In this document: in pieces, positions 7,574 to 51,908 of the stretch
Position numbering within the stretch: the first letter of the stretch is position 1
Layout of the letters: the number at the start of each line of letters is the position of its first letter
From: a virus
Virus record (IMG/VR): IMGVR_UViG_3300045988_126550
Span: 32,001-96,000 of that record
Reading direction: 5' to 3' (one strand)
Length of the DNA stretch: 64,000 nt
Notes under the pieces: model-generated
Databases searched by the model: none
Seen by the model: the letters and a program-made list of their open reading frames with translations, nothing else
Told to the model about the DNA's origin: nothing
Position numbers and translations under genes: made by a program

Positions 7574-7591
7574 AGAAATCTACGCCTTTTT
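7567..7591 (+). terminator. rho-independent terminator
   Basis: GGCGTAGA-gaaa-TCTACGCC followed by TTTTT. Confidence 0.8.
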
Positions 7592-7592
7592 A

Positions 7593-7621
7593 TTGACAAT
7601 AATACAAAATTAATGTATAAT
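7593..7621 (+). promoter_or_regulatory. sigma-A-type promoter
   Basis: TTGACA-N17-TATAAT. A leader motif lies inside the spacer. Confidence 0.6.
7603..7613 (+). promoter_or_regulatory. leader motif TACAAAATTAA (exact)
   Basis: 20 nt upstream of ATG 7634, inside a promoter spacer. Confidence 0.55.
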
Positions 7622-7633
7622 GGAGGTACAATT

Positions 7634-39336: not shown

Positions 39337-40200
39337 ATGGGTGGCGGTTCTTGGACGAGAGATAGCTTTACTAGCTATGTAACTACTGCAAAGTGTGCAA
39401 TGGTAGACGATTTTGGTGTTGTCAGAGGACTAAATAGTGTTCAGGATAATTTTAAGTCGAGATGTCTAGTGGCGGAGCTTAATCCTAAAAATGTTGTTCG
39501 CGAGTGTGTAGATTCCGCAGAACATCCTAATACAAAGCCTGTTATTCTGGCGCTCGATGTAACTGGCAGTATGGGAAGTGCAGCAATGGAAGTTGCAAAG
39601 CAGATCAATGTTGTTATGACAAGCCTATATGAGAAGATGACAGATGTTGAATTTATGATTATGGGTATTGGAGATCTTGCTTATGATAACGCTCCAATTC
39701 AAGCGTCTCAGTTTGAATCAGATATCAGAATCGCAGAACAGCTTGATAAGATTTATTTTGAGGGCGGTGGCGGCGGCAATTCTTATGAGTCCTATACTGC
39801 CGCATGGTATTTTGGGCTTAATCATACCAAGCTAGATTGTTGGAGTCGTGGGCAGAAGGGTGTTATTATTACAATGGGTGATGAACCTTTGAATCCGTAT
39901 CTGCCTAAGAATACTCTATCTGTTGCGACTGGTGATAATCTACAGGATGATGTTGAGACAGCTCAGCTTTATAAGGACGCTTCTGGAAAGTTCGATATCT
40001 ACCATTTGTATGTAAAGCATGGGTATGGTCGTTATGAAGAAGCTGTTAAGGATACTTTCGGCAAGTTTCTTGATGCGAATCATCTCAAGACTACATCTGT
40101 AAATAAGATTGCAGATGATATTATTGAAATTGTAACAAATGCATTTACTGGAAGCGATACAAGTACATTTGTAAATACTAGTGAAGGAATTTCTTGGTAA
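39337..40200 (+). CDS. von Willebrand factor A (vWA) domain protein
   Basis: MIDAS-like LALDVTGSMGS, plus GGGGGNSYES and ITMGDEP. Confidence 0.75.
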   Translation: MGGGSWTRDSFTSYVTTAKCAMVDDFGVVRGLNSVQDNFKSRCLVAELNPKNVVRECVDSAEHPNTKPVILALDVTGSMGSAAMEVAKQINVVMTSLYEKMTDVEFMIMGIGDLAYDNAPIQASQFESDIRIAEQLDKIYFEGGGGGNSYESYTAAWYFGLNHTKLDCWSRGQKGVIITMGDEPLNPYLPKNTLSVATGDNLQDDVETAQLYKDASGKFDIYHLYVKHGYGRYEEAVKDTFGKFLDANHLKTTSVNKIADDIIEIVTNAFTGSDTSTFVNTSEGISW

Positions 40201-40214
40201 GAGGAGATAAACAC

Positions 40215-41363
40215 ATGTCTAATGTTAAAGTAGTAATCGGTAGCAACTTTGGGGACGAAGGAAAAGGATTGATGACTGATTATTTCTGCGCAGAAGCAAA
40301 AAAGCGGAATGAATCCTGTATTGTTGTTTTATCCAATGGCGGAGCACAGAGAGGGCATACTGTGGTTACGCCAGATGGCATTAGACATGTGTTTCATCAT
40401 TTTGGTTCTGGCACTTTTGCAGAAGCCCCTACATATTTTAGCGAGCAATATATTTTAAATCCTATGACTTTTAGAAAAGAGTATGAAGAATTGGATTCTT
40501 TAGGCTTTAAGCCACTCGTTTGTGCGCATTGGAATTGCAGATGGTCAACGCCGTATGATGTGATCGTAAATCAAATTCTTGAAGATAGTCGTGGAGAAAA
40601 TCGACATGGATCTTGTGGCATGGGAATCTGGGAAACTATCTGTAGATATACAAGCGCTGGAGCACCATCATTGCGGCATTTTAATATGATGAGCGAAGAA
40701 TATAAAGTTCAATTTCTCAAAAATATTAGAGATAAATATATGCCGCAGAGATTGGCATCTGCGAACCCAGATGTAGTAAAACAGTGGGAAGAAATTCTAT
40801 ATTCTGATAATCTAATTTATAATTTTATTGATGATATTCAGTTTATGTGCTCACATATTGTTTTTGATTATGGACGCATATTGAGACGATACGACAATGT
40901 TGTATTTGAAAATGGGCAAGGTCTTCTGCTAGATCAGAACCAAACAAGATACGGAGACAATACAACTCCTAGCAATACTGGGATTCAGAACCCACATGTG
41001 ATTATTGAAAAGTATTTATTTGGCGCCAACGTTGAAGTGTGTTATGTTACAAGAACATACCTGACAAGACATGGTGCTGGGGCTTTTGATAGTGAATGTG
41101 ATAAATCTGAAATCAATGACTCTATGGAAGATAGAACTAATGTACCAAATCCGTATCAGGGCAGCATTCGATATGGGAAGTTGGATGTTGATGAACTTGT
41201 AAGCAGAATCAAAAAGGATATTGGTGCGCATTCTTACAATGTATCTTTGGCAGTGACGCATTTGAACGAGTTTGACAACAAAGAGTTATTGGCACTAAAA
41301 GAGCTTAATGTTAAGTATTTGTCTTATAAGGAGACTAGAGAATTGACAGAAAAAATTTTCTGA
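40215..41363 (+). CDS. divergent adenylosuccinate synthetase (PurA/PurZ) family protein
   Basis: GSNFGDEGKG (P-loop, compare PurA GTQWGDEGKG), GGAQRGHTV, FENGQGLLLD and TRTYLTRHGAGAF. The PurA TGRRRR and TKLD regions are not conserved (QGSIRYG, THLNEFD). Confidence 0.75.
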   Translation: MSNVKVVIGSNFGDEGKGLMTDYFCAEAKKRNESCIVVLSNGGAQRGHTVVTPDGIRHVFHHFGSGTFAEAPTYFSEQYILNPMTFRKEYEELDSLGFKPLVCAHWNCRWSTPYDVIVNQILEDSRGENRHGSCGMGIWETICRYTSAGAPSLRHFNMMSEEYKVQFLKNIRDKYMPQRLASANPDVVKQWEEILYSDNLIYNFIDDIQFMCSHIVFDYGRILRRYDNVVFENGQGLLLDQNQTRYGDNTTPSNTGIQNPHVIIEKYLFGANVEVCYVTRTYLTRHGAGAFDSECDKSEINDSMEDRTNVPNPYQGSIRYGKLDVDELVSRIKKDIGAHSYNVSLAVTHLNEFDNKELLALKELNVKYLSYKETRELTEKIF

Positions 41364-41369
41364 AAGTAC

Positions 41370-41397
41370 TTGACAAATAAAAAATATATGATATAAT
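41370..41397 (+). promoter_or_regulatory. sigma-A-type promoter (extended -10)
   Basis: TTGACA-N16-TGaTATAAT. Confidence 0.65.
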
Positions 41398-41418
41398 ATG
41401 GACAGTTGAAAGAAACAA

Positions 41419-41429
41419 AACAAAATTAA
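41419..41429 (+). promoter_or_regulatory. leader-motif variant AACAAAATTAA
   Basis: 19 nt upstream of ATG 41449. Confidence 0.4.
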
Positions 41430-41448
41430 TTGAAAAGGAGCAAGAAAA

Positions 41449-41787
41449 ATGATTAAGTATTATCATCTGAAGGACGGCGTTACAATTGCGGAGCTGAGAA
41501 ATGCGAAATATGATTGTGTCAATCGTATTGCAAGAGTAACTGGTGGGACAAAGAGCCTGTGCTTTGATCCTAGCAAGTATCTGATGTCTAATGTATTTCG
41601 GGCGGCATCTAAGCCGCATGGGACTGACGTATACGACAAGGAAATTGGTGAGCAAGAAGCAAAGCGCAAGGTGATGGCTAAATATTATCGGCAGCTAGAT
41701 CGTTTGTCCGCAGAGTTTGTAGAGGATCTCAATAAGGCGATGTTCGAAGCATCTTGGCGGCTTACAAAAAATTCAGAAAATTCTTAA
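41449..41787 (+). CDS. hypothetical protein
   Basis: 112-aa ORF with its own promoter and a leader-motif variant. Confidence 0.65.
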   Translation: MIKYYHLKDGVTIAELRNAKYDCVNRIARVTGGTKSLCFDPSKYLMSNVFRAASKPHGTDVYDKEIGEQEAKRKVMAKYYRQLDRLSAEFVEDLNKAMFEASWRLTKNSENS

Positions 41788-41794
41788 AAACCTC

Positions 41795-41822
41795 TTGACA
41801 AATAAAAAATTTGTGGTATAAT
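41795..41822 (+). promoter_or_regulatory. sigma-A-type promoter (extended -10) upstream of the tRNA island
   Basis: TTGACA-N16-TGgTATAAT. Confidence 0.65.
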
Positions 41823-41840
41823 ACAGATAGTTCAAAACAA

Positions 41841-41851
41841 TACAAAATTAA
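41841..41851 (+). promoter_or_regulatory. leader motif TACAAAATTAA (exact)
   Basis: 36 nt upstream of the first tRNA-like gene. No ORF follows. Confidence 0.55.
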
Positions 41852-41887
41852 AGTTCCTGAGTACGAACTGAAAAGGCTCAACGATAT

Positions 41888-42011
41888 GCGATGATAGTCC
41901 AATGGTTAAGACGGCAGCTATTATTTTGAAGTGTCTAGCTAGACACGAACAGCAAGTTTGCAAAATTAATGCTCCAAGCTGCAATTGTAGGTTCGATTCC
42001 TACTCATCGCA
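41888..42011 (+). tRNA. tRNA-like gene with a 59-nt sequence in place of the 7-nt anticodon loop (isotype undetermined; Glu/Gln-like D arm)
   Basis: Perfect 7-bp acceptor GCGATGA/TCATCGC, D arm GTC-CAATGGTTAA-GAC, T arm GTAGG-TTCGATT-CCTAC and a 5-bp stem GCAGC/GCTGC enclosing 59 nt. The enclosed sequence includes the palindrome GTGTCTAGCTAGACAC. Confidence 0.55.
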
Positions 42012-42019
42012 ATAATATG

Positions 42020-42136
42020 TCTCCTGTAGCTCAGTTGGATAGAGCACTTAATAACGAGACTTGCAAAAGCCTTAAACAGCAAATTTCTATTGGTCTGTTA
42101 AACCAGAGGTCACAGGTTCGAGCCCTGTCAGGAGAC
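42020..42136 (+). tRNA. tRNA-Asn(GTT) interrupted by a ~43-nt insertion between the D arm and the anticodon stem
   Basis: TCTCCTG-TA-GCTC-AGTTGGATA-GAGC-A-[43 nt]-TTGGT-CTGTTAA-ACCAG-AGGTC-ACAGG-TTCGAGC-CCTGT-CAGGAGA-C. Close to the E. coli tRNA-Asn layout apart from the insertion. Confidence 0.6.
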
Positions 42137-42142
42137 TTTAAA

Positions 42143-42197
42143 AAGGCACTAGCAGCAACTTTAAACAATATGCTGGATATTATATTGATGGTGCCTT
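42143..42197 (+). repeat. ACAGCAA-family hairpin element A
   Basis: 7-bp stem AAGGCAC/GTGCCTT enclosing an AT-rich loop that starts TA-GCAGCAA. Confidence 0.4.
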
Positions 42198-42207
42198 GCC
42201 TTACATA

Positions 42208-42275
42208 GAGACGCTTACAGCAATTTAAAAAAGATGAAAATGATATTTTTACTAATGATTTTATTTTGGCGTCTC
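42208..42275 (+). repeat. ACAGCAA-family hairpin element B
   Basis: 7-bp stem GAGACGC/GCGTCTC enclosing an AT-rich loop that starts TT-ACAGCAA. Confidence 0.4.
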
Positions 42276-42378
42276 GTTGAATAAACTCCAAAGGCACTAA
42301 CAGCAAATTTTCAATGTGGAGAATACATAAGAATGTGTCTTGGGATTTAGAAATAAATCAAAAATGGAGGAAAGAAAA

Positions 42379-43926
42379 ATGTCTTTTATGAATGCAGTAA
42401 AGAATACTTTGAATGAGGAGTTTAATTACTCGGTAACTGAAAATGGCGCCCTTGGGTATCGTACTTCTGGCAAAGAACTGACTGACCTAAACTTTGCCGT
42501 TGCCTCTATGCGCGGTATGAACGAGAAGACCATCTATGATAAGTTCACGAAGGTTTATTTCGAAGACAAGATGATGGCTTTACGTTGGTTATTTTTCGCA
42601 AGAGATGTTCGTGGCGGTCTTGGCGAGAGACGTTTGTTCAGAACGGTTCTTAAAAATATGGCAAAGGACGACCCCAATACTGTTAAACGTCTTGCCTGTC
42701 TGGTGAGCGAGTATGGCCGTTATGATGACCTGTGGTGTCTGTTTGGAACGGATGTGGATGGTGTTGTTTTCGATATCATTAAGAAGCAGCTTTCTGATGA
42801 CATCGCAAATATGGCAGAGAATAAACCCGTATCTCTTCTTGCTAAGTGGCTCCCTTCCGTAAATGCTTCTTCTACAAGAACTAAGATGGACGCAAGATAT
42901 ATTTGCAAGAATCTTGGAATGACAGAGAGTAAGTATCGTAAGATTCTTTCTTCTCTGCGTTCTTACATTGACATTGTAGAAAGTAAGATGTCTGCAAAGA
43001 AGTGGGAAGAAATTAAGTACGAAACGGTTCCTTCTCGTGCAAATCTAATCTACAACAACGCTTTCCTCCGTAACGATGAGGAGCGTCGCAGAGAGTATCT
43101 GAGCAAGCTTGAAAAGGGTGAAACTAAAATCAATGCAGGAACTTTGTTCCCCCATGACATCGTTCACAAATATTGCAGTGGACGTATGTATAGCTATGGC
43201 GTTGGTAAGTACGATGCAACTATTGAATCTCTTTGGAAGGCTTTGCCCAATACAGTAAACGAGTGTGGGAACACTATTGTGGTTGCAGATGGCTCCGGTT
43301 CTATGTACTGCAATGTTGGCGGAAATACTTGTGTTACGGCACTTGAAGTTGCAAATGCACTTGCAATTTACTTTGCAGAGCATTCTTCTGGTGACTTTAA
43401 GGATAAATACATTACTTTCTCTAGCAGACCTCAGTTGGTTGATTTTAGTCAGTGCGATTCTCTAAGAGATAAGCTACGTGTTGCATATAGTCATTACGAG
43501 TGTTCAAATACAAACATTGAAAAGGTGTTTGATTTGATTCTTACTACTGCGGTGAATGGTCATATGAAGCAGGAGGATATGCCTAAGAATGTACTGATTA
43601 TTTCAGACATGGAGTTTGACTTTTGTGCAACTTGTGGTGGTTCCAATGGATGGAGTCTTAATAGACCTAGTGCAAGACTTTTTGATGTAATCAAGAAGCG
43701 TTTCGAGGATGCTGGGTATCAGATGCCTAGACTGGTCTTCTGGAATGTAAATTCTCGTACTGGCACTATTCCTGTAAAGGAGAACGACCTTGGTGTTGCT
43801 CTTGTTAGTGGTTTCTCCACTAATGTTTGCAAGATGGTCATGAGTGGTAAGACTGATCCTTACGAGTGCCTTGTTGAGACGCTTATGAGTGAGAGATATG
43901 ATGCAGTTGAGGCTGCGTTAAAGTAA
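42379..43926 (+). CDS. DUF2828-like helical domain + C-terminal vWA protein (Ro60-like architecture)
   Basis: N-terminus TENGALGYRTSG...LDLNF...ARDVRGGLGERRLF matches my recollection of the UCP015417/DUF2828 family. C-terminal MIDAS VVADGSGSM. ATG at 42379 lies 8 nt after GGAGG. Confidence 0.75.
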   Translation: MSFMNAVKNTLNEEFNYSVTENGALGYRTSGKELTDLNFAVASMRGMNEKTIYDKFTKVYFEDKMMALRWLFFARDVRGGLGERRLFRTVLKNMAKDDPNTVKRLACLVSEYGRYDDLWCLFGTDVDGVVFDIIKKQLSDDIANMAENKPVSLLAKWLPSVNASSTRTKMDARYICKNLGMTESKYRKILSSLRSYIDIVESKMSAKKWEEIKYETVPSRANLIYNNAFLRNDEERRREYLSKLEKGETKINAGTLFPHDIVHKYCSGRMYSYGVGKYDATIESLWKALPNTVNECGNTIVVADGSGSMYCNVGGNTCVTALEVANALAIYFAEHSSGDFKDKYITFSSRPQLVDFSQCDSLRDKLRVAYSHYECSNTNIEKVFDLILTTAVNGHMKQEDMPKNVLIISDMEFDFCATCGGSNGWSLNRPSARLFDVIKKRFEDAGYQMPRLVFWNVNSRTGTIPVKENDLGVALVSGFSTNVCKMVMSGKTDPYECLVETLMSERYDAVEAALK

Positions 43927-43932
43927 TGAAAA

Positions 43933-43993
43933 AAGACTCGAACAGCAACTATTAAAGGATTTGACTGCTAATCAAAATTACCTAAAGAGTCTT
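43933..43993 (+). repeat. ACAGCAA-family hairpin element C
   Basis: 7-bp stem AAGACTC/GAGTCTT with a loop that starts GA-ACAGCAA. Confidence 0.4.
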
Positions 43994-43994
43994 G

Positions 43995-44020
43995 TTTAAA
44001 GTGCTGGGCATCACTTTAAA
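43995..44020 (+). other. perfect 9-bp stem-loop
   Basis: TTTAAAGTG-ctgggcat-CACTTTAAA with no T-run after it. Lies just upstream of the tRNA-Leu gene. Confidence 0.4.
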
Positions 44021-44035
44021 GCTGCCCCGTGATAT

Positions 44036-44167
44036 GCGGGTATGGTGGAATCGGCAGACACAAGGGACTTGCTGATAGCCAGTGCTTTGGTAGGGGCAGC
44101 ACCTACAATCAGTACCAAAAATCCCTCGGAGAAATCCATGCGAGTTCAAATCTCGCTACCCGCACCA
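44036..44167 (+). tRNA. type II tRNA-Leu (anticodon TAA if spliced) with a 47-nt insertion in the anticodon loop; CCA encoded
   Basis: GCGGGTA-TG-GTG-GAATCGGCAGA-CAC-A-AGGGA-CTT[47 nt]AAAA-TCCCT-variable arm CGGAGAAATCCAT-GCGAG-TTCAAAT-CTCGC-TACCCGC-A-CCA. Confidence 0.65.
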
Positions 44168-44309
44168 TGACCTTGGCAAGTCATTAAACTACCACAGCTA
44201 TAAGCTGATAACCACATACTACGGACGAACTGCGTGTGGCTCCCAAGTGGATGAAGGTTTGATCGTCTGGCAGGTTGGCGCTCCTGTCGAAGTTAAAAGC
44301 GCGTTATAT

Positions 44310-44376
44310 CCTCTTTTAGTGTAAAGGTTGCACAGCTCCGCCGAGGAGTAGGAACGGTTCGATTCCGTGCAGAGGA
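44310..44376 (+). ncRNA. tRNA-like element with a truncated anticodon arm (possible pseudo-tRNA or mimic)
   Basis: D arm GTGT-AAAGGTT-GCAC, T arm ACGG-TTCGATT-CCGT and an imperfect acceptor CCTCTTT/GCAGAGG. The anticodon arm is reduced to CTCC-GCCGA-GGAG. The flanks GCGCT/AGCGC can extend the acceptor helix. Confidence 0.3.
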
Positions 44377-44556
44377 GCGCTTGACACGGCGCTGGTGTTA
44401 TCTCTGGCATACGGATTACTAGTATGCAAAGCATTTACTTCGGTGGAAAATGCGGGGCAGAACAGAACCTTGGGTCTGTCACTTACACATCCATCCAAGT
44501 GTGGTTTGTGCTGAGGCCGGTGATGGGGCGGTCGTTTATAATACCCCATTCAATAT

Positions 44557-44633
44557 GCGCCACTATCCCAACAGGCAGAGGAAATGCACTCAAAATGCAT
44601 CAAGTCTCAGTTCGAATCTGAGATGGCGTACCA
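44557..44633 (+). tRNA. tRNA with anticodon CAA but a short variable loop (not Leu-type architecture); CCA encoded
   Basis: GCGCCAC-TA-TCC-CAACAGGCAGA-GGA-A-ATGCA-CTCAAAA-TGCAT-CAAGT-CTCAG-TTCGAAT-CTGAG-ATGGCGT-A-CCA. G1-U72 wobble and a 7-66 mismatch. Confidence 0.5.
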
Positions 44634-45076
44634 AATGATAGTAAGTAGTGCAAATTTCATAAGTGATTACCGATGAGAATAAGCTCCCGACAGGATTTGC
44701 TAACTGTTGATATTAATTAGATGAGCTGAAGGTAATTGACGAAACACTATGAAATGGAGTCATGCACGGCTCCGCTTGCTATCATTACCACACCGTTTGA
44801 TGTGTGCCGACGGTATAAAAAATGGTAAACATCATTTCAAGGGTAGAGGATATGAAATGTGAATCCAGCCACTTGAATTGAGTCCTATAGCCCATGGTAC
44901 TAGTGGACTATGCGTGAATGGACACTACTTGAGATAGCATCAAAACAGCAATCCTAAAAAGTACCTGAAACGCTAGGCAATTATGAAATTATAGTTATTA
45001 AATCCTTCTTAAACCAAAGTTCACAGAATGGTCAACCAAGATAATTAAGGTTAAGTATTTAATAACTATAATATAT

Positions 45077-45172
45077 GCCCTCATAGTTTAACGGTAAAAC
45101 ACCCGGTTTATACCCGGCATTGAGGCTCCAGATTAGGGCACGTTCTCCGTTCGAATCGGAGTGGGGGTACCA
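45077..45172 (+). tRNA. tRNA-Ile(TAT)-like gene with a ~26-nt variable region; CCA encoded
   Basis: GCCCTCA-TA-GTTT-AACGGTA-AAAC-A-CCCGG-TTTATAC-CCGGC-[ATTGAGGCTCCAGATTAGGGCACGTT]-CTCCG-TTCGAAT-CGGAG-TGGGGGT-A-CCA. Confidence 0.5.
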
Positions 45173-45304
45173 GCCACCAGAGATGCGAATGTGCAACTTA
45201 CTGCATCCGTGTAATATTTGGCAATCTTAACCGCGATAGTGTTGAGTGCTTGGATAATCTTATTACTTCTACAACAGATAATTTCGCCAAGAAGTAAATT
45301 ATAT

Positions 45305-45379
45305 TGGGATGTCGCCAAGTGGTAAGGCACCAGACTTTGACTCTGGCATTCGTAGGTTCGAGTCCTGCCATCCCAGCCA
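45305..45379 (+). tRNA. tRNA-Gln(TTG), canonical; CCA encoded
   Basis: TGGGATG-TC-GCC-AAGTGGTAA-GGC-A-CCAGA-CTTTGAC-TCTGG-CATTC-GTAGG-TTCGAGT-CCTGC-CATCCCA-G-CCA. Very similar to E. coli tRNA-Gln. Confidence 0.85.
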
Positions 45380-45735
45380 TGGCTTTTGGCATTTGAGCCA
45401 TATAATCAATATGCCAGCCGATGAAACAAAGGCTTCGTTAGGTGGTGTTTGTGGAGGCTCTACCCGTAGGTTTGATGTTATCTTGTAAAGAGATGGTTCC
45501 TGCGTCCTAACTTAGATCTTTCACAAAAACATCAACACATAATTGTCTTATCGCACCTCTGTTTAGCATTACAAGTGCCCCAGATAAGCCTTTGGAGAAA
45601 AATGAAATCCTATTTTTCATAAGGGTGGACTGAATAAGTTGGTCATATTGAGTCCGTTCTAACTTTTGGTTGTAATGTAGTTGCTAAGTGGTTGATTACT
45701 GACCACATGAAACCACTCGGCAACGGCCAAAATAT

Positions 45736-45811
45736 GCGGTAGTAGCTCAATTGGTAGAGCCTCAGATTTCCAATCTGATTGTTGCGGGATCGTGCCCCGT
45801 CTACCGTTCCA
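45736..45811 (+). tRNA. tRNA-Gly(TCC) with an atypical T loop; CCA encoded
   Basis: GCGGTAG-TA-GCTC-AATTGGTA-GAGC-C-TCAGA-TTTCCAA-TCTGA-TTGTT-GCGGG-ATCGTGC-CCCGT-CTACCGT-T-CCA. Confidence 0.8.
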
Positions 45812-45943
45812 CCGCTCTCGCGGATTCTCGGCGATGCTTCCAACAAGTATGCGAAAGAGAAAAATGGTATAAGTCTCACAATTACTACCTGCTGTTACAG
45901 GTTGACTGAATAAAGGTAATTACAAAAATAAAAGGAGACAATT

Positions 45944-46213
45944 ATGGTACAGAATGTTGTAATTGGTAGACCTCTTGTAAACTCGGCTCAACTGTTTGCA
46001 AATAGTGTTAAAGATTGGGATGAAAATGAAAAAGAGATTACTCTATTTACCGAAGAAAGATTCCTGCCTCGTATTCTTGTAGCGGCTGGAATTGCCAAAA
46101 GCACCACCGAAGTACGAAAGAATAGACCCGAACTTGTAAAAGAGTTGGCTGATGTTGATTTTATTAGGATTAAGTGGGGCAAAAAATTTCTGTGGATTGC
46201 AGTTGGTGAATAA
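45944..46213 (+). CDS. hypothetical protein inside the tRNA array (weak S4-like RNA-binding resemblance)
   Basis: 89-aa ORF with an AAAGGAGA RBS. The segment ILVAAGIAKSTTEVRKN loosely resembles S4/TyrRS C-terminal alpha-L motifs. Its stop abuts tRNA-Lys. Confidence 0.55.
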   Translation: MVQNVVIGRPLVNSAQLFANSVKDWDENEKEITLFTEERFLPRILVAAGIAKSTTEVRKNRPELVKELADVDFIRIKWGKKFLWIAVGE

Positions 46214-46288
46214 CGCCCGCTGGCCAAATGGTAAGGCACCACACTTTTAATGTGGGCATTCTGAGTTCGATTCTCAGGCGGGCGACCA
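46214..46288 (+). tRNA. tRNA-Lys(TTT) with a Gln-like D arm; CCA encoded
   Basis: CGCCCGC-TG-GCC-AAATGGTAA-GGC-A-CCACA-CTTTTAA-TGTGG-GCATT-CTGAG-TTCGATT-CTCAG-GCGGGCG-A-CCA. Confidence 0.85.
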
Positions 46289-46314
46289 TATTTTTTTAGT
46301 ATGAAGGTGAAATA

Positions 46315-46809
46315 ATGCCAAAAGCGTTAGATTTAACCAATAAGAGATTTGGCTCATTAGTGGTATTATCAAAAGCTAAAAGCAGAGCAAATAAAACTTA
46401 TTGGCTTTGTCGATGCGATTGTGGGGTTCAGAAAGAAATTCAAACATCTCATCTTATGTCTGGAGCAATAAAATCTTGTGGATGCCAATTTGACCCGATA
46501 AAAAATTTTGGAAGAGTTGACAAAGAAATAGAATGTCATATTTGCGGAAGAAAATTTTTACCCAATAATGCGATGAGAAAATATTGTTATGAATGCGTCC
46601 CAGCAAGACTTTCTTCACGAGAACGAATCAATCATTTAGACCGTTTAATAAAACATATACTAATTCAATATAAAGGCGGGAAATGTGAAAAATGCGGATA
46701 TGATAGATGTGAGGGAGCCCTTCATTTTCATCATAGAAATCCAAAAGAAAAAGAATTTGTAGTGTCACAAATAAATCTTAGTAACGAATTTGGCATTCGT
46801 CAATTATAG
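46315..46809 (+). CDS. HNH endonuclease interrupted by an in-frame TAG (motif completed in frame to 46875)
   Basis: KSCGC, CHICG..CYEC and LHFHHRNPKEKEF lie before TAG at 46807. QEVDKCSLLCANCHAEEHYKK follows in the same frame. Confidence 0.7.
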   Translation: MPKALDLTNKRFGSLVVLSKAKSRANKTYWLCRCDCGVQKEIQTSHLMSGAIKSCGCQFDPIKNFGRVDKEIECHICGRKFLPNNAMRKYCYECVPARLSSRERINHLDRLIKHILIQYKGGKCEKCGYDRCEGALHFHHRNPKEKEFVVSQINLSNEFGIRQL

Positions 46810-46947
46810 CAAGAAGTAGATAAGTGTTCTCTTTTATGTGCCAATTGTCACGCGGAAGAGCATTATAAGAAATAGTTATTGTGAAATTCAAACGCGTCTA
46901 CCTTTGGGCGCCCCGTAATAGCCGGACTAAAACATAAGGAGGTAAAT

Positions 46948-47109
46948 ATGGATACTAAAACGTTGAAAGACATTATTGCCACAAGAATTCAGGCCGAAAA
47001 TGGTAACCCAACGGGAATATCATTCTTGTATTCGATTGTGCAAATGGTTAATGAACTAGAGGAATTAAAATTAGAAAATGAACGTCTTAAGCAAGAACTA
47101 TGTAAGTAA
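46948..47109 (+). CDS. small hypothetical coiled-coil protein (53 aa)
   Basis: AAGGAGGT RBS. A terminator follows. Confidence 0.5.
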   Translation: MDTKTLKDIIATRIQAENGNPTGISFLYSIVQMVNELEELKLENERLKQELCK

Positions 47110-47112
47110 ATT

Positions 47113-47160
47113 ATAACCCGTGCTATCAATGGATCGGGTAGCATGGGTTATTATTTTTTT
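47113..47160 (+). terminator. rho-independent terminator
   Basis: ATAACCCGTGCTA...TAGCATGGGTTAT followed by a T-run. Confidence 0.65.
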
Positions 47161-47175
47161 GTTATTAGGAGTGAT

Positions 47176-47820
47176 ATGATGCGTAAGTGGAAGCAAGTAA
47201 TTGTAATTTTGGGACTTTTATTATTTGTAATTATTATTAATATATTGAATAAAAAAGATTATGTAGCATCAGAAAATGCTAGTTTATATAAAGAACCTTT
47301 AATCGTAGAATATGAATCAGAAACAAACCCGCCAATCAACAAGCTTAATATTTATGAACAGGCAGTACTATATCAGGAAGAAATTTTCGAGCAGCAACAA
47401 GAAAAATTAAAGCAAGAAGAATTAGATGATATTTTATCAAAATGTAATATATATTGCGACGTGTCTGAAATCAAATTTGTAGATACAAATACACAATATA
47501 CAGATTATGAAAAACAACTATTAGCTCAATGTCTATATTGTGAAGCCGGAAGCACATCATGGGAGTGTCAAGTAATTACATTGTCTGCCATTCTTAATCA
47601 TTGTGACGAATACGGTGGATTATGGGTATTGAATTCTGAAAATCATTTTGCAGTTGCTCCATATTATCAATATGTTATGCCACAAGAAGAACAAGATAAA
47701 GTTGTTGATTATGTATTATCTGGACATAGAATTGCAGATGTTGTATATTTTAGAATACATACATTCCATAGTTTTGGTACGCCAATGTTATATGTAGATG
47801 GAGTATATTTCTCAAAATAA
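47176..47820 (+). CDS. SleB/CwlJ-like cell wall hydrolase with an N-terminal membrane anchor
   Basis: ATG after TAGGAG. A transmembrane helix is followed by LLAQCLYCEAGSTSWECQVITLSAILNH, which resembles the Hydrolase_2 core. Confidence 0.6.
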   Translation: MMRKWKQVIVILGLLLFVIIINILNKKDYVASENASLYKEPLIVEYESETNPPINKLNIYEQAVLYQEEIFEQQQEKLKQEELDDILSKCNIYCDVSEIKFVDTNTQYTDYEKQLLAQCLYCEAGSTSWECQVITLSAILNHCDEYGGLWVLNSENHFAVAPYYQYVMPQEEQDKVVDYVLSGHRIADVVYFRIHTFHSFGTPMLYVDGVYFSK

Positions 47821-47821
47821 A

Positions 47822-47849
47822 ATAGTGGATTATTTCCCACTATTTTTTT
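47822..47849 (+). terminator. rho-independent terminator
   Basis: ATAGTGG-attatttc-CCACTAT followed by TTTTTT. Confidence 0.75.
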
Positions 47850-47859
47850 ATGCAATGGG

Positions 47860-47887
47860 TTGACAAATTGTAAATACATGATATACT
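47860..47887 (+). promoter_or_regulatory. sigma-A-type promoter (extended -10)
   Basis: TTGACA-N16-TGaTATACT. Confidence 0.6.
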
Positions 47888-47903
47888 AATACAGGATAAA
47901 CAA

Positions 47904-47914
47904 TACAAAATTAA
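47904..47914 (+). promoter_or_regulatory. leader motif TACAAAATTAA (exact)
   Basis: 18 nt upstream of ATG 47933. Confidence 0.55.
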
Positions 47915-47932
47915 TTAAAGGATGGTGCATAT

Positions 47933-48088
47933 ATGAAGACAGATAAGTATATTTTATTTTATAAGCATAATGGAGTTAATAAATGGATTGACGCAAATAA
48001 TCTATCACTGCTTAAAACAGTGCCGAATATTTGCGAGTGGATGACAGAATACAAAATTATTGACAGCACAACTGGAGAGGAGGTATAA
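47933..48088 (+). CDS. small hypothetical protein (51 aa)
   Basis: AAAGGATGG RBS after a promoter and a leader motif. Confidence 0.45.
   Translation: MKTDKYILFYKHNGVNKWIDANNLSLLKTVPNICEWMTEYKIIDSTTGEEV
48050..48060 (+). promoter_or_regulatory. leader-motif variant TACAAAATTAT
   Basis: 29 nt upstream of ATG 48090, inside a small ORF. Confidence 0.35.
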
Positions 48089-48089
48089 A

Positions 48090-49190
48090 ATGAGAGTGTA
48101 TATGGACAATGCTGCCACAACTCCCATTTGTGAAGCAGCAAAGAAAGTTATTCTAGAAAATTTGGATGAGTTCTATAATCCCAACAGTTCTTATGAGACG
48201 GCTCGTAATGTCAAAGTAAAGGTAGAAGAAGCACGTGAAAAGATTGCGGAGTTGATTGGGGCAGAACCAAACGAAATCTATTTCACGTCTGGTGGATCAG
48301 AAGCAAACTCATGGGTGATGTGTAATGGATTTTCTGTTACTTCTAATATTGAACATCATTCTATTAAATCAGATTTTAAAATTAATGTAGATTCAAATGG
48401 ATTGATTGATTGTACAAAATTTAAAACAAAGATACATGAAATGAAAGACAATGATTTTTGTATCCCACCAAGCATTGCATCGTGTATGTTTGTAAATAAC
48501 GAAATAGGGGTAATTGAACCAATTAAAGACTTGGCAAAGATTGCACATGACAATAATATGTTATTTCATTCAGACGCAGTACAGGCCTTCCCTCATATGA
48601 AGATTGATGTAAAAAATCTTGGCGTAGATATGATGTCGTGTTCGGGGCACAAGTTTGGTTCTCCTAAGGGGATCGGCTTCCTGTATATTAAAAATGGAAT
48701 TAGTATTAATCCATTAATTAATGGTGGCGGGCAGGAAAGAGGGATCCGAGGCGGCACGACCAATGTACTGGGCGTCCTTGCAATGGCGGCAGCTTTAGAA
48801 GATACAATCGCGCACATGGATGAAAACAACGCGAAAGTCTCTTGCTTATCAAAGAAATTAAAGGATAACTTACTTGGGGTAAAAGGAGTCACACTTAATG
48901 CAATTGATGCAAAAACTCCATGTATAGAAAGTATTTTAAACCTCAGGATTGACGATGTGAAGAGTTCTGACCTAGTCACAATGTGTGATCTATATGGCAT
49001 TGAGATTAGCTCTGGGTCGGCATGTAACGAAGGAACAGCAGAGCCTTCTCATGTGCTCAAAGCTATTGGGCTCACAACCGAACAGGCATTAAGCAGCATT
49101 AGAATCTCACTATCTCATCTAAACACTGAAGAAGAAATCGACTATGTTTCTAAAATGTTACCAAAAATTATTTCCAGATTACGCCAGTAA
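48090..49190 (+). CDS. cysteine desulfurase (NifS/IscS-like class V aminotransferase)
   Basis: YMDNAATTP, SGGSEAN, HSDAVQA, the PLP lysine in SGHKFGSPKG, and the catalytic Cys in SSGSACNEG. Confidence 0.85.
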   Translation: MRVYMDNAATTPICEAAKKVILENLDEFYNPNSSYETARNVKVKVEEAREKIAELIGAEPNEIYFTSGGSEANSWVMCNGFSVTSNIEHHSIKSDFKINVDSNGLIDCTKFKTKIHEMKDNDFCIPPSIASCMFVNNEIGVIEPIKDLAKIAHDNNMLFHSDAVQAFPHMKIDVKNLGVDMMSCSGHKFGSPKGIGFLYIKNGISINPLINGGGQERGIRGGTTNVLGVLAMAAALEDTIAHMDENNAKVSCLSKKLKDNLLGVKGVTLNAIDAKTPCIESILNLRIDDVKSSDLVTMCDLYGIEISSGSACNEGTAEPSHVLKAIGLTTEQALSSIRISLSHLNTEEEIDYVSKMLPKIISRLRQ

Positions 49191-49195
49191 GGTAC

Positions 49196-49223
49196 TTGAC
49201 AAATGAAGATTCCATGCTATAAT
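49196..49223 (+). promoter_or_regulatory. sigma-A-type promoter (extended -10)
   Basis: TTGACA-N16-TGcTATAAT. Confidence 0.65.
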
Positions 49224-49228
49224 AACAA

Positions 49229-49239
49229 TACAAAATTAA
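49229..49239 (+). promoter_or_regulatory. leader motif TACAAAATTAA (exact)
   Basis: 19 nt upstream of ATG 49259. Confidence 0.55.
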
Positions 49240-49258
49240 TTGAAAGGAGATTGACACC

Positions 49259-49432
49259 ATGACAGAGGACAATCGTATTAAGGAAGAAGCCAAGAAGCAG
49301 AGAAATTTTTGGACATGTCCACGACCAGTGACTAAGGTTTTGCGCAACGCTAAGGCATACAACAGGGCCAAGGATCGTAAGGATAAACGATTGTATGAGG
49401 AAGACGTAGAAGATGCTATCGAAGAAAGATAA
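49259..49432 (+). CDS. small basic hypothetical protein (57 aa)
   Basis: AAAGGAGA RBS after a promoter and a leader motif. Confidence 0.45.
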   Translation: MTEDNRIKEEAKKQRNFWTCPRPVTKVLRNAKAYNRAKDRKDKRLYEEDVEDAIEER

Positions 49433-49826
49433 AAGTTATTTTAGGGCGGCTCAGGCAGTTAGCACACTATCAGATTTCAAAAGAATAAACGTAGGAGCGG
49501 TCTTGGTTTATAAGCACCGAATAATTTCAAGTTCTTGTAATTCTCAGCGGACACATCCTTTACAGCGCAAGTTGAATAAAGAAAGGTTCAACGAAGACAC
49601 TCCTGCGAAATTACATGCCGAAGTTAACTGCCTTATTTCATTACTTGGAAATAAAGATATTAAATGGAAAGACTGTGAACTCTATGTGTATAGAGAATAT
49701 AAGCGTGGAGGGTTGGCTATGAGTCGGCCTTGTCCATCCTGCCAAAAATTAATTAAAGAACTTGGCATTAAGACTGTCCATTACACTACTGACGGTGGGT
49801 ATGCCACAGAAGAATTTGAAATTTAA
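49413..49826 (+). CDS. dCMP (deoxycytidylate) deaminase
   Basis: Zinc motifs HAEVNCL and PCPSCQKLI. Confidence 0.85.
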   Translation: MLSKKDKSYFRAAQAVSTLSDFKRINVGAVLVYKHRIISSSCNSQRTHPLQRKLNKERFNEDTPAKLHAEVNCLISLLGNKDIKWKDCELYVYREYKRGGLAMSRPCPSCQKLIKELGIKTVHYTTDGGYATEEFEI

Positions 49827-49836
49827 GGAGACAATT

Positions 49837-49995
49837 ATGAAAGAAGCATATTCCGATCTATGCAAAGCATGTTATATTCGCATTATGAAGCCTTCAAAAA
49901 AGGAGATTAAGAAAATTGTAATGACACCATATGAAACAGAATGCGAGTGTTGTCATAAGACCAAACAGGTGGTCGATTATGTGGAGGACGATTAA
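49837..49995 (+). CDS. small Cys-rich hypothetical protein
   Basis: Internal ATG after AAGGAGA. Confidence 0.5.
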   Translation: MKEAYSDLCKACYIRIMKPSKKEIKKIVMTPYETECECCHKTKQVVDYVEDD

Positions 49996-50228
49996 TGAAA
50001 GGTCTTCCATCTAAAGAGATTGTGATGACAGAGATTAAATCTCTAAAAGGAGAAACATTTTATATTACAACAACTGCATTACGCGATACATATTATATAT
50101 ACAAAATTGCAAATAATGTTGCTACAAAGCTTGGGAGCAATAAAAGCCCTTTGGTATTGGAGGATAAATATATCGGAGAACGAGAAAAAGCATTAAAAAG
50201 ATTGGAGAAAATGATAGATGAGCAATGA
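49995..50228 (+). CDS. hypothetical protein
   Basis: TAATG overlap. 77 aa. Confidence 0.6.
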   Translation: MKGLPSKEIVMTEIKSLKGETFYITTTALRDTYYIYKIANNVATKLGSNKSPLVLEDKYIGEREKALKRLEKMIDEQ

Positions 50229-50616
50229 ATATAAAGATTATTATGAAGACCTTTATTGTGAGTTTGAAGACAGAGTTGAGGCACTAGATTTTCTACCGGA
50301 TGGCTGGGTTAATAGTTTTGTGCCAAAGCTGAAAGAAGAACTCTTTGGTATTATTGGTAGTTATACTGAAAACTTTGAAATTGTACAGGCGAAGGAAAAG
50401 TGGGGAAAACTAAGAGTGTATTGGAGCTGGGAAGACAAGGATTATTCCGACCTAGAAGCTGCTGATATGAATGAATTATATGACAAGATTGAAAATACAC
50501 TTGAAAAATACGCCACTATTAGCCGGAAAACTTGTGCGGTGTGCGGAAAGTCAGCAACGTCATATACGACTGGATGGGTGCTTCCTGTTTGTGAAGAATG
50601 CAAGGAGGAGGCGTAA
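50218..50616 (+). CDS. hypothetical protein (C-terminal CxxC...CxxC)
   Basis: 132-aa ORF. Confidence 0.65.
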   Translation: MSNEYKDYYEDLYCEFEDRVEALDFLPDGWVNSFVPKLKEELFGIIGSYTENFEIVQAKEKWGKLRVYWSWEDKDYSDLEAADMNELYDKIENTLEKYATISRKTCAVCGKSATSYTTGWVLPVCEECKEEA

Positions 50617-50618
50617 TT

Positions 50619-51413
50619 ATGACAGAAGAAAGAATGAAGTTGGTAGAGCCAATTCTAAATACATTTGAAAATGAAGATATTAAAGAATTTGCTATTGTGC
50701 TACTAGACAATTTGCCAGAGTATATTTGGAGCGTACCAGCTTCAAGTACTGGTAAATATCATCCGCAATATAGCTTGGGTCTAGGTGGTTTGATGAGACA
50801 TCAGATTGCAGTTGTAAGATTCCTGAACTTTTTCTTTGAGCTTGAGCAATACCAGAACGTTATTAATAGCAGAGAGCGTGACTTAATGCGTATAGCTGGT
50901 CTTGTACATGATGGACGTAAGAGCGGCTCTCAACAGGATTTTGAGCGTTCTAAATATACCAAGTTTGACCATCCTAAGCTAATGGCAGATGTTATTACAT
51001 CATATTCTGGCAAATATTTAACAGTAGAAGAGCTTGCATTTGTTTCACGTGCTATTAATAGCCACATGGGACAATGGAATATTGATAAGAAAACTGGCAT
51101 AGAACTTCCTAAACCTTCAAATGTATATGAAGAGCTTGTTCACTTAGCCGACTATCTAGCAAGTCGTAAGTCTTTGACTATGGATTTTGAAAATATTGAA
51201 GTTCCGCGCACTGTGGTTATTAATCCAGAAGAATATGTAATGCAATTCGGCAAGTACAAGGGACAGAAAATTATTGATGTGTATCGTGAACATCCAGACT
51301 ATTTGCAATGGTGTGAGGAAAATATTGGTCGCAGAGATGTTCTAGATGCTATTGCAGCTTGTAAGAAGAAAGCGGAAGAAAAGATTGAGGCTGATGACGA
51401 TATTGATTTATAA
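50619..51413 (+). CDS. HD-domain phosphohydrolase
   Basis: GKYHP...RH...GLVHDGRK...HLADYLAS. The C-terminal FGKYKGQKIIDV...PDYLQWC module is seen in other phage and nuclease proteins. Confidence 0.75.
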   Translation: MTEERMKLVEPILNTFENEDIKEFAIVLLDNLPEYIWSVPASSTGKYHPQYSLGLGGLMRHQIAVVRFLNFFFELEQYQNVINSRERDLMRIAGLVHDGRKSGSQQDFERSKYTKFDHPKLMADVITSYSGKYLTVEELAFVSRAINSHMGQWNIDKKTGIELPKPSNVYEELVHLADYLASRKSLTMDFENIEVPRTVVINPEEYVMQFGKYKGQKIIDVYREHPDYLQWCEENIGRRDVLDAIAACKKKAEEKIEADDDIDL

Positions 51414-51428: not shown

Positions 51429-51908
51429 ATGGGAACTAACTTCTATATGATTACAAAGAACAAAGAAATGGCTCAGCGGTATGCACCATATTCTTATGAG
51501 CTTACGGATACGCCATATTTCGGATATGAGATTCACGTAGCCAAGACTAGTTTTGGCTGGTTGCCGCTTTTCCAAGAGCATAAAGATGGTATTAACTCTG
51601 TAGCTGAGTATAAAGTGGCATATGATACAAATGAGTTTAAAATTTATGATGAATACGGATGTGAATACAATTGGGATGCCTTTGATGATAGAGTGCTAAA
51701 GTTCAATGGCGGGGTTCTTGGGGTACAGGAGCCGAAGAAGATTGAGCAAAACAAATATTTTCGATGGTATGACAAGAGCATGCCAGACTATTGCCCTGTT
51801 AGTCATATTAGTGGAAGTCTGCAGAGCTATAAGTTTGATGGTTTGTTTGCGAATGATTATTTCGTTGACGCTGATGGATTTGAATTTTCAAGGAGTGAAT
51901 TTTCGTAA
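51429..51908 (+). CDS. hypothetical protein
   Basis: 159-aa ORF with an AAGGAGA RBS. Confidence 0.7.
   Translation: MGTNFYMITKNKEMAQRYAPYSYELTDTPYFGYEIHVAKTSFGWLPLFQEHKDGINSVAEYKVAYDTNEFKIYDEYGCEYNWDAFDDRVLKFNGGVLGVQEPKKIEQNKYFRWYDKSMPDYCPVSHISGSLQSYKFDGLFANDYFVDADGFEFSRSEFS

Follow-up and report, generated by a model that had tools for sequence, protein, structure and literature searches.

How can a tRNA gene stay in use when its anticodon is split by a segment far shorter than any self-splicing intron of the usual bacterial kind? This question is raised by a tRNA-Leu(UAA) gene at 44036-44167 of a 64,000-nucleotide stretch of viral DNA (positions 32,001 to 96,000 of the IMG/VR record IMGVR_UViG_3300045988_126550), in which 47 nt (44071-44117) are lodged between U34 and A35. 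The whole 64 kb stretch, hereafter the window, defines the genomic scope of this analysis; its G+C content is about 35% and all of its genes lie on the plus strand. Textbooks describe the introns of bacterial and phage tRNAs as group I ribozymes, and short introns removed from tRNAs by proteins are considered characteristic of archaea and eukaryotes. The Leu insert is short, conserved and structurally constrained and fits neither class; its two ends coincide with the 5' end and the CCA 3' end of a tRNA-like fold. Its boundaries, geometry and covariation, the intactness of the exons, the existence of a nested family and the presence of suitable enzymes were all established computationally. Judged from these comparisons, the phage tRNA-Leu(UAA) gene is very probably functional and the 47 nt a real intron in it.

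The outer gene is a complete type II tRNA, and the elements listed by an earlier sequence-only reading of this DNA are all in place: an acceptor stem GCGGGTA/TACCCGC, a D arm GTG-GAATCGGCAGA-CAC, an anticodon stem AGGGA/TCCCT (44063-44067 with 44122-44126), a variable arm of 13 nt, a T arm GCGAG-TTCAAAT-CTCGC and an encoded ACCA. The Rfam tRNA model RF00005 matches 44036-44164 with 43.1 bits (gathering score 29, E 1.3e-6) and places a 51-nt insertion in the anticodon loop. ARAGORN misses the interrupted gene at 44036-44167 under default settings and in intron mode reports tRNA-Leu(taa) with a 47-nt intron ('gactt-Intron-aaaat'). The gene divides as follows.

44036-44070, plus strand: 5' exon of tRNA-Leu(UAA), with the acceptor 5' strand, the D arm, the anticodon stem 5' strand and C32 U33 U34; supported by Rfam and ARAGORN and equal to the 5' part of the uninterrupted alleles L003-L005 described below.
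44071-44117, plus strand: intron of 47 nt in the form of a tRNA-like minihelix, which starts with its own +1 and ends with its own CCA; supported by presence/absence polymorphism and by the same site in five divergent tRNA-Leu genes.
44118-44167, plus strand: 3' exon, with A35 A36 A37 A38, the anticodon stem 3' strand, the 13-nt variable arm, the T arm, the acceptor 3' strand and ACCA.

The boundaries follow from natural alleles. Via the neighbouring DUF2828/DUF7788 protein (42379-43926), 15 related IMG/VR loci on phage contigs of 80-170 kb were fetched. Just downstream of this protein's gene, L003, L004 and L005 carry an uninterrupted tRNA-Leu(UAA), and L006-L009 and L013 an interrupted one. 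In the alignment, the uninterrupted allele reads AGGGACTT followed without any insert by AAAATCCCT, whereas the window, L006-L009 and L013 have 47 bases more. Since the flanking bases are T/G at the 5' junction and A/A at the 3' junction, the insert cannot slide and the boundaries 44071-44117 are unique, which bears out the placement exactly between U34 and A35 proposed in the sequence-only reading. Without the insert, CUU and AAAA form CUUAAAA, the canonical 7-nt loop of the uninterrupted alleles, and default ARAGORN recognises the window exons, once joined in silico, as tRNA-Leu(taa). The locus is found in a third state as well. At 7598-7937 of L001, and also in L002, the position 3' of the DUF2828 gene is occupied by another tRNA-Leu(UAA) allele (GCAGGTG...CACCTGCACCA) with a group-I-like intron of about 250 nt, apparently between U33 and U34. 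In L001 this intron scores 41.9 bits against Rfam Intron_gpI (E 1.8e-9), under the gathering score of 50. The same tRNA-Leu locus thus exists in an uninterrupted form, in one with the 47-nt minihelix and in one with a group I intron.

A pattern scan found introns of the Leu type at this site on 12 IMG/VR contigs, which come from five IMG sample ids, and on one further contig of 147 kb that is binned with an uncultured, metagenome-assembled Prevotella genome; the insert is hence no assembly artefact. At blastn sensitivity, INPHARED held no cultured-phage relatives and returned generic tRNA matches only. The tRNA-Leu(UAA) genes on the intron-bearing contigs are of five clearly distinct kinds, with acceptor stems including GCGGGUA, GCGGGAU, GCGCGAA and GGCCCAA. 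After joining of the exons in silico, default ARAGORN calls tRNA-Leu(taa) in all five, and the joined exons share one type II cloverleaf in which 17 of the 25 pairs are kept via double substitutions. The acceptor, D, anticodon and T stems contain no broken pair (0), and the split loop CUU...AAAA is retained exactly. Between lineages, the intron has diverged to a degree similar to that of the exons. It thus appears to have resided for a long time in genes selected as tRNAs, which implies its removal from the RNA.

These data also bear on the possibility that no splicing takes place at all. The 47-mer could be a selfish mini-element of tRNA origin, or a cargo RNA for whose expression and processing the tRNA gene serves as a scaffold, in which case the outer tRNA-Leu would be inactivated and the functional product would be the minihelix RNA only, or nothing. 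An element that is present or absent on nearly identical exons, and whose relatives sit in four tRNA species at three positions, does behave as a mobile one; other phages have stand-alone RNAs that resemble minihelices or tmRNAs and share this T loop, and exonucleolytic 3' maturation of an inner element would lose the 3' exon. Yet the compensatory substitutions that keep every stem of the five divergent genes, together with their exact loop, would be hard to understand in inactivated tRNAs, and the similar divergence of intron and exons argues for long co-residence rather than repeated recent insertions. Moreover, the interrupted copy is the only tRNA-Leu(UAA) gene found in the window, and the same holds for L006-L009 and L013 as far as these intron-bearing loci were fetched. 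We consider this explanation improbable. By the pattern of its substitutions, the interrupted tRNA-Leu is not a pseudogene: in the homologues, the insert is conserved and sits in genes that purifying selection maintains, unlike the recent degenerate insertion that the sequence-only reading had named as an observation that would overturn it.

What, then, is the insert? Its 47 nt read GCUGAUA-GCCAGUGCUUUG-GUAGG-GGCAGCA-CCUAC-AAUCAGU-ACCA and can be divided into five parts.

44071-44077, plus strand: acceptor-like 5' strand GCUGAUA, pairing with 44107-44113 (6/7 in the window), with compensatory changes at positions 2-6 in the Leu introns.
44078-44089, plus strand: connector GCCAGUGCUUUG, with a possible mini-hairpin GC-CAGU-GC suggested by eye.
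44090-44106, plus strand: T-arm-like hairpin GUAGG-GGCAGCA-CCUAC, with 5 bp and a non-canonical 7-nt loop, directly abutting the acceptor 3' strand.
44107-44113, plus strand: acceptor-like 3' strand AAUCAGU, with covariation among introns.
44114-44117, plus strand: ACCA, formed by the discriminator and CCA, the four bases with which the intron ends.

On this comparative evidence, the insert is best described as a miniature tRNA mimic, with a 7-position acceptor-like stem on a T-like arm of 5 bp and 7 nt and an ACCA end. In the window, 6/7 and 5/5 pairs form, with zero spacing between the T-like stem and the acceptor 3' strand. Among shuffled 47-mers of matched composition, the same geometry (at least 6/7 pairs, 5/5 pairs and a CCA end) arose in 3 of 2,000,000 cases (1.5e-6). 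The sequence-only reading had proposed both pairings, CTGAT/ATCAG and GTAGG-GGCAGCA-CCTAC, and had called for a covariation analysis across related phages; both are kept in the relatives and covary, the first through compensatory changes. It had missed the minihelix geometry that the two helices form with the terminal ACCA, and its alternative pairing TTTGGTA/TACCAAA competes with the hairpin that is conserved and is itself not maintained in L028, in L137 or in the other intron families. As a MAFFT alignment of the full-length introns misaligned the 5' strands, pairs were counted on the first 7 and last 28 nt of the inserts, whose ends had been defined independently and served as the register. 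Across 17 distinct introns, 97.1% of the cells of the 12-pair structure are paired, versus 62.6% in column shuffles, which ignore phylogeny, and 34-45% with slid partners, a control that does not. Double changes occur at 11 of the 12 pairs, and all 7 acceptor-like positions covary. For the seven distinct Leu introns alone the values are 92.9% versus 76.2%, with double changes at five pairs (acceptor-like positions 2-6); their strand variants include GCUGAU/AUCAGU, GGGUAU/AUACUC, GGGUAU/AUAUCC, GCUUGAU/AUCAAGU and GUUGGAU/AUCCGAC. The T-like stem likewise covaries across intron families (GUAGG/CCUAC, GUUGG/CCAAC, AUUGG/CCAAU, ACGAG/CUCGU, GUAAG/CUUAC), and 16 of the 17 distinct introns end in NCCA. 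The A73-CCA is conserved even where the outer tRNA has no encoded CCA, as in L058, whose intron still keeps its ACCA. Possible equivalents of the connector hairpin, read from the sequences, are GACA-UAG-UGUC (L028), UUC-AAGU-GAA (the 49-nt Gln insert) and CC-CAGA-GG (the 48-nt Gln insert). The whole precursor has a folding z-score of -2.53, yet its minimum-energy fold is not the cloverleaf plus minihelix. Because thermodynamic folding is uninformative here, the structural case is a comparative one.

The Leu intron is not the only one of its design. The same kind of insert is present in Lys(UUU), Gln(UUG) and Ile(UAU) tRNAs of the relatives:

L003, 11534: Lys(UUU), insert of 56 nt.
L001, 10054: Lys(UUU), insert of 75 nt.
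L004, 10778: Gln(UUG), insert of 49 nt.
L005, 10228: Gln(UUG), insert of 48 nt.
L004, 8127: Ile(UAU), insert of 77 nt.
L003, 8524: Ile(UAU), insert of 76 nt.
L009, 8446: Ile(UAU), insert of 73 nt.

In the other interrupted genes, for Ile(UAU), Lys(UUU) and Gln(UUG), removal of everything from the inner +1 to the inner CCA restores a canonical 7-nt loop in 8 of 8 cases. The ends of the Ile inserts were chosen by the CCA rule together with the requirement for a 7-nt loop; those of both Gln inserts (49 and 48 nt) and both Lys inserts (56 and 75 nt) are confirmed by uninterrupted orthologues. Insertion sites vary between 34/35, 35/36 and 36/37 and always follow a U. The inserts of 73-77 nt are full cloverleaves, the 75- and 77-nt versions having the T loops UUCGAGU and UUCAAGU. 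In L004, the insert at 8164-8240 has the anticodon CUA and matches the Rfam tRNA model with 43.5 bits at 8164-8237; this tRNA is nested at 36/37 of a tRNA-Ile(UAU) at 8127-8280 (also in L006, 8136-8289), again with its own +1 and CCA as boundaries, and by its anticodon is a predicted amber suppressor. The mini-introns have in common a T-like loop GNCANCA (GGCAGCA, GGCAGUA, GUCAUCA), and GGCAGGA is seen among the relatives too. Sequence comparison thus places the Leu intron in a mobile family that includes complete nested tRNAs and that can be arranged as a series from a putatively functional nested tRNA through degenerate tRNA-like elements to the 47-nt minihelix.

T loops of the type GGCAGYA occur outside the introns as well, namely in stand-alone phage tRNAs (Lys, Phe and Ile; L018, L023 and L031), in the tRNA-like domain of permuted tmRNAs (L026, 4706-5025; L038, 7146-7577) and in stand-alone acceptor/T elements of about 50 nt with an ACCA end. 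Such a stand-alone element adjoins an Rnl1 homologue in L038 and a kinase homologue in L026.

Known RNA classes do not account for the insert. The U34/A35 position of tRNA-Leu(UAA) is the classic site of the cyanobacterial and plastid group I intron, as the sequence-only reading had noted; the tRNA species and the position agree, and the likeness is a positional coincidence only. With 47 nt versus more than 200 nt and no P3-P9 core, the insert is far too short for a group I intron, as had been pointed out before. It ends in ACCA and not in G, and U34 could face only A44114, so that no U.G pair with an internal guide would form. Intron_gpI gave no match within 40000-50000 (E ≤ 1) or on the insert (E ≤ 10), the intron of L001 being detected as a positive control, and no Rfam family at all matched the 47-nt insert at E ≤ 10. 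The protein-spliced introns of archaea and eukaryotes (EndA/Sen with RtcB or Trl1) are similarly short, lie in the anticodon loop, presumably likewise depend on enzymes and a ligase, and leave halves that are held by the mature tRNA domain. They are, however, defined by a 3-4-3 bulge-helix-bulge at 37/38, whereas the inserts described here vary in position and occur in a phage of bacteria. In the Leu intron, both junctions lie at the same helix end, the 5' one at the base of a 6-7-bp helix and the 3' one 4 nt past that end as a single-stranded tail, and no 3-4-3 arrangement can be drawn. No EndA/Sen-type domain turned up in Pfam and PHROGs scans of about 45 window open reading frames (ORFs), a non-exhaustive scan.

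Another solution would be a small ribozyme that cleaves or splices itself, such as a minimal HDV-like 'theta' ribozyme, in which the first helix likewise starts from a G1.U at the cleavage site. Theta ribozymes of similar size (about 50 nt) adjoin tRNAs in gut phages and are linked to phage tRNA processing and suppressor tRNAs (PMC10879173), and the order of helices in the insert (P1 5' strand, hairpin, P1 3' strand) superficially recalls HDV P1/P3, with G1 indeed facing a U in the window. Theta ribozymes, however, lie 3' of the tRNA, cut once at their own 5' end and form a double pseudoknot with a catalytic C. In the insert, ACCA alone follows the 3' strand of the first helix, which leaves no room for a J4/2 with this C or for a P2 3' strand, and conservation of the candidate P2 UUUGGU/ACCAAA does not extend to L028, L137 or the Lys and Gln versions. 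The G1.U is a G-C in most relatives, and five introns begin with C. Furthermore, excision needs two cuts where known small ribozymes make one, some members of the family are ordinary full-length tRNAs, and Rfam ribozyme models matched neither the insert (E ≤ 10) nor the surrounding 10 kb (E ≤ 1). A ribozyme is hence very improbable.

The closest published parallel is found in Lak megaphages, whose 'enigmatic' tRNA introns were reported with the remark that one of them 'itself may encode a tRNA' and with no mechanism proposed (Devoto et al. 2019, Nat Microbiol, PMC6784885). Like the inserts described here, these are short non-group-I inserts in anticodon loops, polymorphic for presence and absence between related phages, and those of Table S6 end in a tRNA-like acceptor/T-arm fold. 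In contrast, they comprise 79-114 nt, lie at or beside the canonical 37/38 site, end at the discriminator with no CCA, and start with a conserved UACA-type hairpin and an A/U-rich linker before the tRNA-like part. The Leu intron lacks such a hairpin and linker at about 37/38 and opens with an acceptor-like strand at 34/35; an assignment to the Lak type was thus rejected. In the present family the tRNA mimic makes up the entire intron, from +1 to CCA, down to 47 nt and inside the anticodon (34/35 to 36/37). By our reading of the 7-nt loops in Table S6, the Lak 3' splice site would directly follow the discriminator of the embedded fold, where RNase Z canonically cuts, and the Lak tRNAs have no encoded CCA (PMC6784885). 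This parallels the 'after CCA' rule and would therefore fit tRNA 3'-end processing in both systems. Full-text literature searches, with most subscription journals outside their coverage, revealed no tRNA-like or minihelix introns and no mechanism for them except Devoto et al. 2019, and no use of tRNA-like processing signals as an intron. Phage tRNA introns containing tRNA-like folds have barely been described before; what is added here is the recognition of a minihelix intron with exact tRNA-end boundaries.

How could such an intron be removed? The insertion sites differ (34/35, 35/36 and 36/37), which leaves the inner tRNA-like fold as the only constant feature; as this fold is the sole invariant and the junctions are its +1 and its CCA, the cut sites would most simply be set by enzymes that read tRNA ends. 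Given the minihelix geometry, the likeliest mechanism would thus be a pair of tRNA end-processing cuts, possibly with no need for end-healing by kinase and HD proteins. An acceptor stem stacked on a T arm with a 3' NCCA is the minimal substrate of bacterial RNase P. Every intron 5' junction among the sequences compared has a U at -1, as do 82 of the 96 ordinary tRNA genes of this phage family. Rnl1-type ligases seal nicks with 3'-OH and 5'-phosphate ends in tRNA anticodon loops, and a nick in an otherwise folded tRNA is their preferred substrate. A cluster of tRNA-repair genes lies about 6.5-14 kb downstream of the tRNA-Leu, with the Rnl1-family ligase about 8 kb downstream:

50598-51413, plus strand: HD-domain phosphohydrolase with a possible role in 3'-end healing (Pfam HD E 6e-7; ExoX-like_C).
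51908-53023, plus strand: RNA ligase of the T4 Rnl1 family, the putative exon sealer (Pfam RNA_lig_T4_1 E 1.1e-15; PHROG 562; structure 2C5U, T4 RNA ligase 1, E 1.9e-17).
53288-54097, plus strand: nucleotidyltransferase, a candidate CCA-adding or RNA-repair enzyme (PHROG 388 E 1.9e-18; weak RlaP match).
54718-55623, plus strand: polynucleotide kinase with a Pnkp-type P-loop, a possible end healer (Pfam AAA_33; PHROG polynucleotide kinase; Clostridium thermocellum Pnkp kinase domain 4GP7 E 1.3e-13).
57651-58484, plus strand: Thg1-like 3'-5' polymerase for tRNA 5'-end repair (Pfam Thg1 E 2.3e-25; PHROG 4717 E 8e-92).

The ligase, kinase and HD proteins invoked in the sequence-only reading are thus encoded nearby according to Pfam, PHROGs and structure matches, and together the Rnl1-type ligase, the 5' kinase and the HD protein as putative 3' phosphoesterase make up the partner set of T4-type Pnkp/Rnl1 repair.

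We infer each of the following steps, as well as the spliced RNA itself. A perfect sigma-70 promoter (41795-41822; TTGACA, a 16-nt spacer with an extended -10 TG, and TATAAT; 12/12 matches) lies upstream of two tRNA-like genes, the DUF2828 gene and the tRNA array; directly upstream of the tRNA-Leu there is no comparable promoter, and the Leu gene is therefore probably processed from a long transcript. This transcript would fold such that the outer cloverleaf and the inner minihelix form together. Host RNase P would then read the inner minihelix with its acceptor/T stack, 3' RCCA and U at -1 and cut between U34 and intron G1 (44070/44071), leaving a 3'-OH on the 5' exon. A tRNA 3'-end endonuclease of the RNase Z/BN type, or another one, would cut after CCA (44117/44118) and leave a 5'-phosphate on the 3' exon. 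With the halves held by the outer tRNA stems and the nick located inside the anticodon, the phage T4-Rnl1-type ligase (51908-53023) would finally join the exons ...GGGACUU and AAAAUCCC..., and the neighbouring kinase and HD enzymes could serve as a back-up if the ends need healing. That the tRNA-like structure defines the cut sites is probable. The pathway of RNase P, after-CCA endonuclease and Rnl1 as a whole is about evenly balanced between right and wrong. The further step of regarding it as a third kind of tRNA splicing, apart from group I and bulge-helix-bulge/EndA splicing, in which a tRNA-mimic intron is excised by RNase P and a tRNase and the exons are joined by a viral Rnl1-type ligase, is offered tentatively.

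The main rival accepts a real intron and replaces the tRNA end-processing enzymes by a dedicated phage or host endoribonuclease that reads the minihelix or the GGCAGCA loop and leaves a 2',3'-cyclic phosphate and a 5'-OH; kinase and HD protein would then heal the ends before Rnl1 seals them, on the model of T4 Pnkp/Rnl1 repair or yeast Trl1 splicing. For this, the full enzyme set is available in one cluster (HD protein 50598-51413, ligase 51908-53023, kinase 54718-55623), along with conserved ORFs with no assigned function (51429-51908, 54098-54718 and 55744-56325). The T-like loop GNCANCA, conserved though non-canonical, could mark a protein-binding site, and no clash would arise with the role of CCA as an RNase Z anti-determinant. 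The enzyme that would have to make the cuts has no candidate, however: neither Pfam, even at relaxed thresholds, nor PHROGs detected a splicing endonuclease in the repair cluster, and Pfam found nothing nuclease-like there. ORF 51429-51908 has homologues in this phage family only, and its AlphaFold model (pLDDT 76.6) gave no fold match in the Protein Data Bank (PDB). In addition, a complete nested tRNA like the CUA suppressor has to rely on RNase P and 3' processing for its release anyway, and boundaries exactly at +1 and CCA are those of a tRNA end-processing product. We regard this heal-and-seal route as unlikely, albeit less so than a selfish element or a ribozyme.

Several observations weigh against excision by tRNA end-processing enzymes. 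Its weakest step is the 3' cut. In many bacteria, CCA is an anti-determinant for RNase Z, and precursors that encode CCA are often matured by exonucleases; since exonucleases would destroy the 3' exon, this step calls for a precise endonuclease, and none was identified. The mimicry is imperfect as well: in the loop GGCAGCA only C56 and A57 fit the consensus U54 U55 C56 R57 A58, D and anticodon arms are absent, and position 7/66 is an A.A mismatch in the window. The isolated 47-mer has a z-score of 0.04, and its minimum-energy fold is another structure, with the minihelix appearing in the centroid only. Pnkp/Rnl1 clusters occur also in phages that have no tRNA introns, which makes the cluster non-specific evidence, and co-occurrence of intron and Rnl1 was checked within the close family, the reach of the protein-pattern scan; for the fetched loci L028 and L137, tblastn for Rnl1 was uninformative and Pfam gave nothing on their ORFs. 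The host signals conflict, with one intron copy in a Prevotella bin and the perfect sigma-70 promoter, which fits poorly with a Bacteroidota host, pointing elsewhere. Finally, the extra 5' hairpin and linker of the Lak introns could not be removed by RNase P cleavage alone.

Minihelix substrates, the MALAT1 mascRNA and mitochondrial tRNA punctuation show that tRNA-like folds direct RNase P and RNase Z cuts inside longer transcripts; there the flanks are not rejoined, whereas here they are tRNA halves that need religation. T4 Pnkp/Rnl1 repair also relies on an encoded ligase, kinase and phosphoesterase and deals with anticodon-loop breaks in U34 tRNAs (compare Leu UAA, Lys UUU, Gln UUG and Ile UAU here). 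In T4, however, the break is damage by a host anticodon nuclease, while here it would be programmed by the gene's own structure; the kinase of the window resembles bacterial Pnkp, and the 3' healer would be the HD protein. There is a substantial chance that the splicing pathway is categorically new. If the proposed pathway holds, housekeeping tRNA-processing enzymes and a viral ligase would together provide a new splicing logic, T4-type RNA ligases would gain a programmed substrate beyond damage repair, and the 'enigmatic' introns of Lak phages would find an explanation. One gene would deliver two RNAs, such as a tRNA-Ile and an amber suppressor, which is relevant to stop-codon recoding in gut phages. 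Moreover, the introns would be mobile among U34 tRNAs (Leu, Lys, Gln and Ile) in forms from complete cargo tRNAs to 47-nt minihelices. They could tie the maturation of tRNAs for A/U codons to phage gene expression or hide these tRNAs from anticodon nucleases. In practice, phage tRNA genes that standard tools miss can be re-annotated by the rule that such an intron spans a minihelix from +1 to CCA.

The surroundings of the tRNA-Leu hold further peculiarities. Downstream of the sigma-70 promoter, two tRNA-like genes (41888-42011 and 42020-42136; Rfam tRNA 49.8 and 41.9 bits) have inserts of 50-60 nt in the anticodon arm. Removal of these inserts restores no canonical anticodon loop, and they do not show the minihelix/NCCA geometry. 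All relatives, even the distant L012, have kept both genes upstream of the DUF2828 gene. The sequence-only reading had treated a 'tRNA-Asn', probably the gene at 41888-42011, as an analogue of the tRNA-Leu, and this comparison does not hold since that gene belongs to a different class. A link of the DUF2828/DUF7788 protein to Ro60 and Y RNA was considered and dropped: the protein has no sequence match to Ro60 structures, and Rfam YrlA at 41957-42070 reaches 23.6 bits, far below the threshold of 69.

A motif A(A/G)CAGCAA, usually followed by NTTT, is clustered within 3 kb on the plus strand (41948, 42075, 42151, 42299, 43941 and 44944). Exact AACAGCAA matches number nine in the window, five of them inside this 3-kb stretch, against an expectation of 3.7 for all 64 kb; the copy at 42151 is the variant AGCAGCAA. 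Two motif copies lie inside the inserts of the two tRNA-like genes, and at 42151, 42299 and 43941 the motif stands at the start of a large loop that a 7-bp stem closes. The AACAGCAA elements show no significant folding stability. The motif could be a processing site or a phage promoter element.

Next to the tRNA-Lys, an HNH endonuclease ORF (46315-46877) contains an in-frame TAG (46807-46809) that splits the HNH motif (...HFHHRNP...GIRQL*QEVDKCSLLCANCHAEEHYKK). TAG ends 2 of 72 long ORFs, and ORFs 7229-7573 and 7574-8329 would merge if TAG were a sense codon. The split HNH ORF hints at amber read-through or recoding in this phage family, or else is a pseudogene. Upstream, 40194-41363 encodes an adenylosuccinate-synthetase homologue (Pfam Adenylsucc_synt, E 1.6e-30), which by analogy with PurZ may point to a genome containing 2-aminoadenine (Z-base).

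The tRNA array itself includes two odd members. The tRNA at 44557-44633 combines a CAA anticodon and a Leu-like D loop with a 5-nt variable region, its counterparts in the relatives being 85-nt type II Leu(CAA) tRNAs, and that at 45077-45172, a tRNA conserved in the relatives, has a UAU anticodon and a 22-nt variable arm. Long spacers that contain no ORF separate tRNA genes at 44301-44558 and 45412-45735 and are about 81-82% identical in the relatives. One of them contains a T-arm-like segment around 44350-44375, and the spacers may hold further non-coding RNAs or decayed tRNAs.

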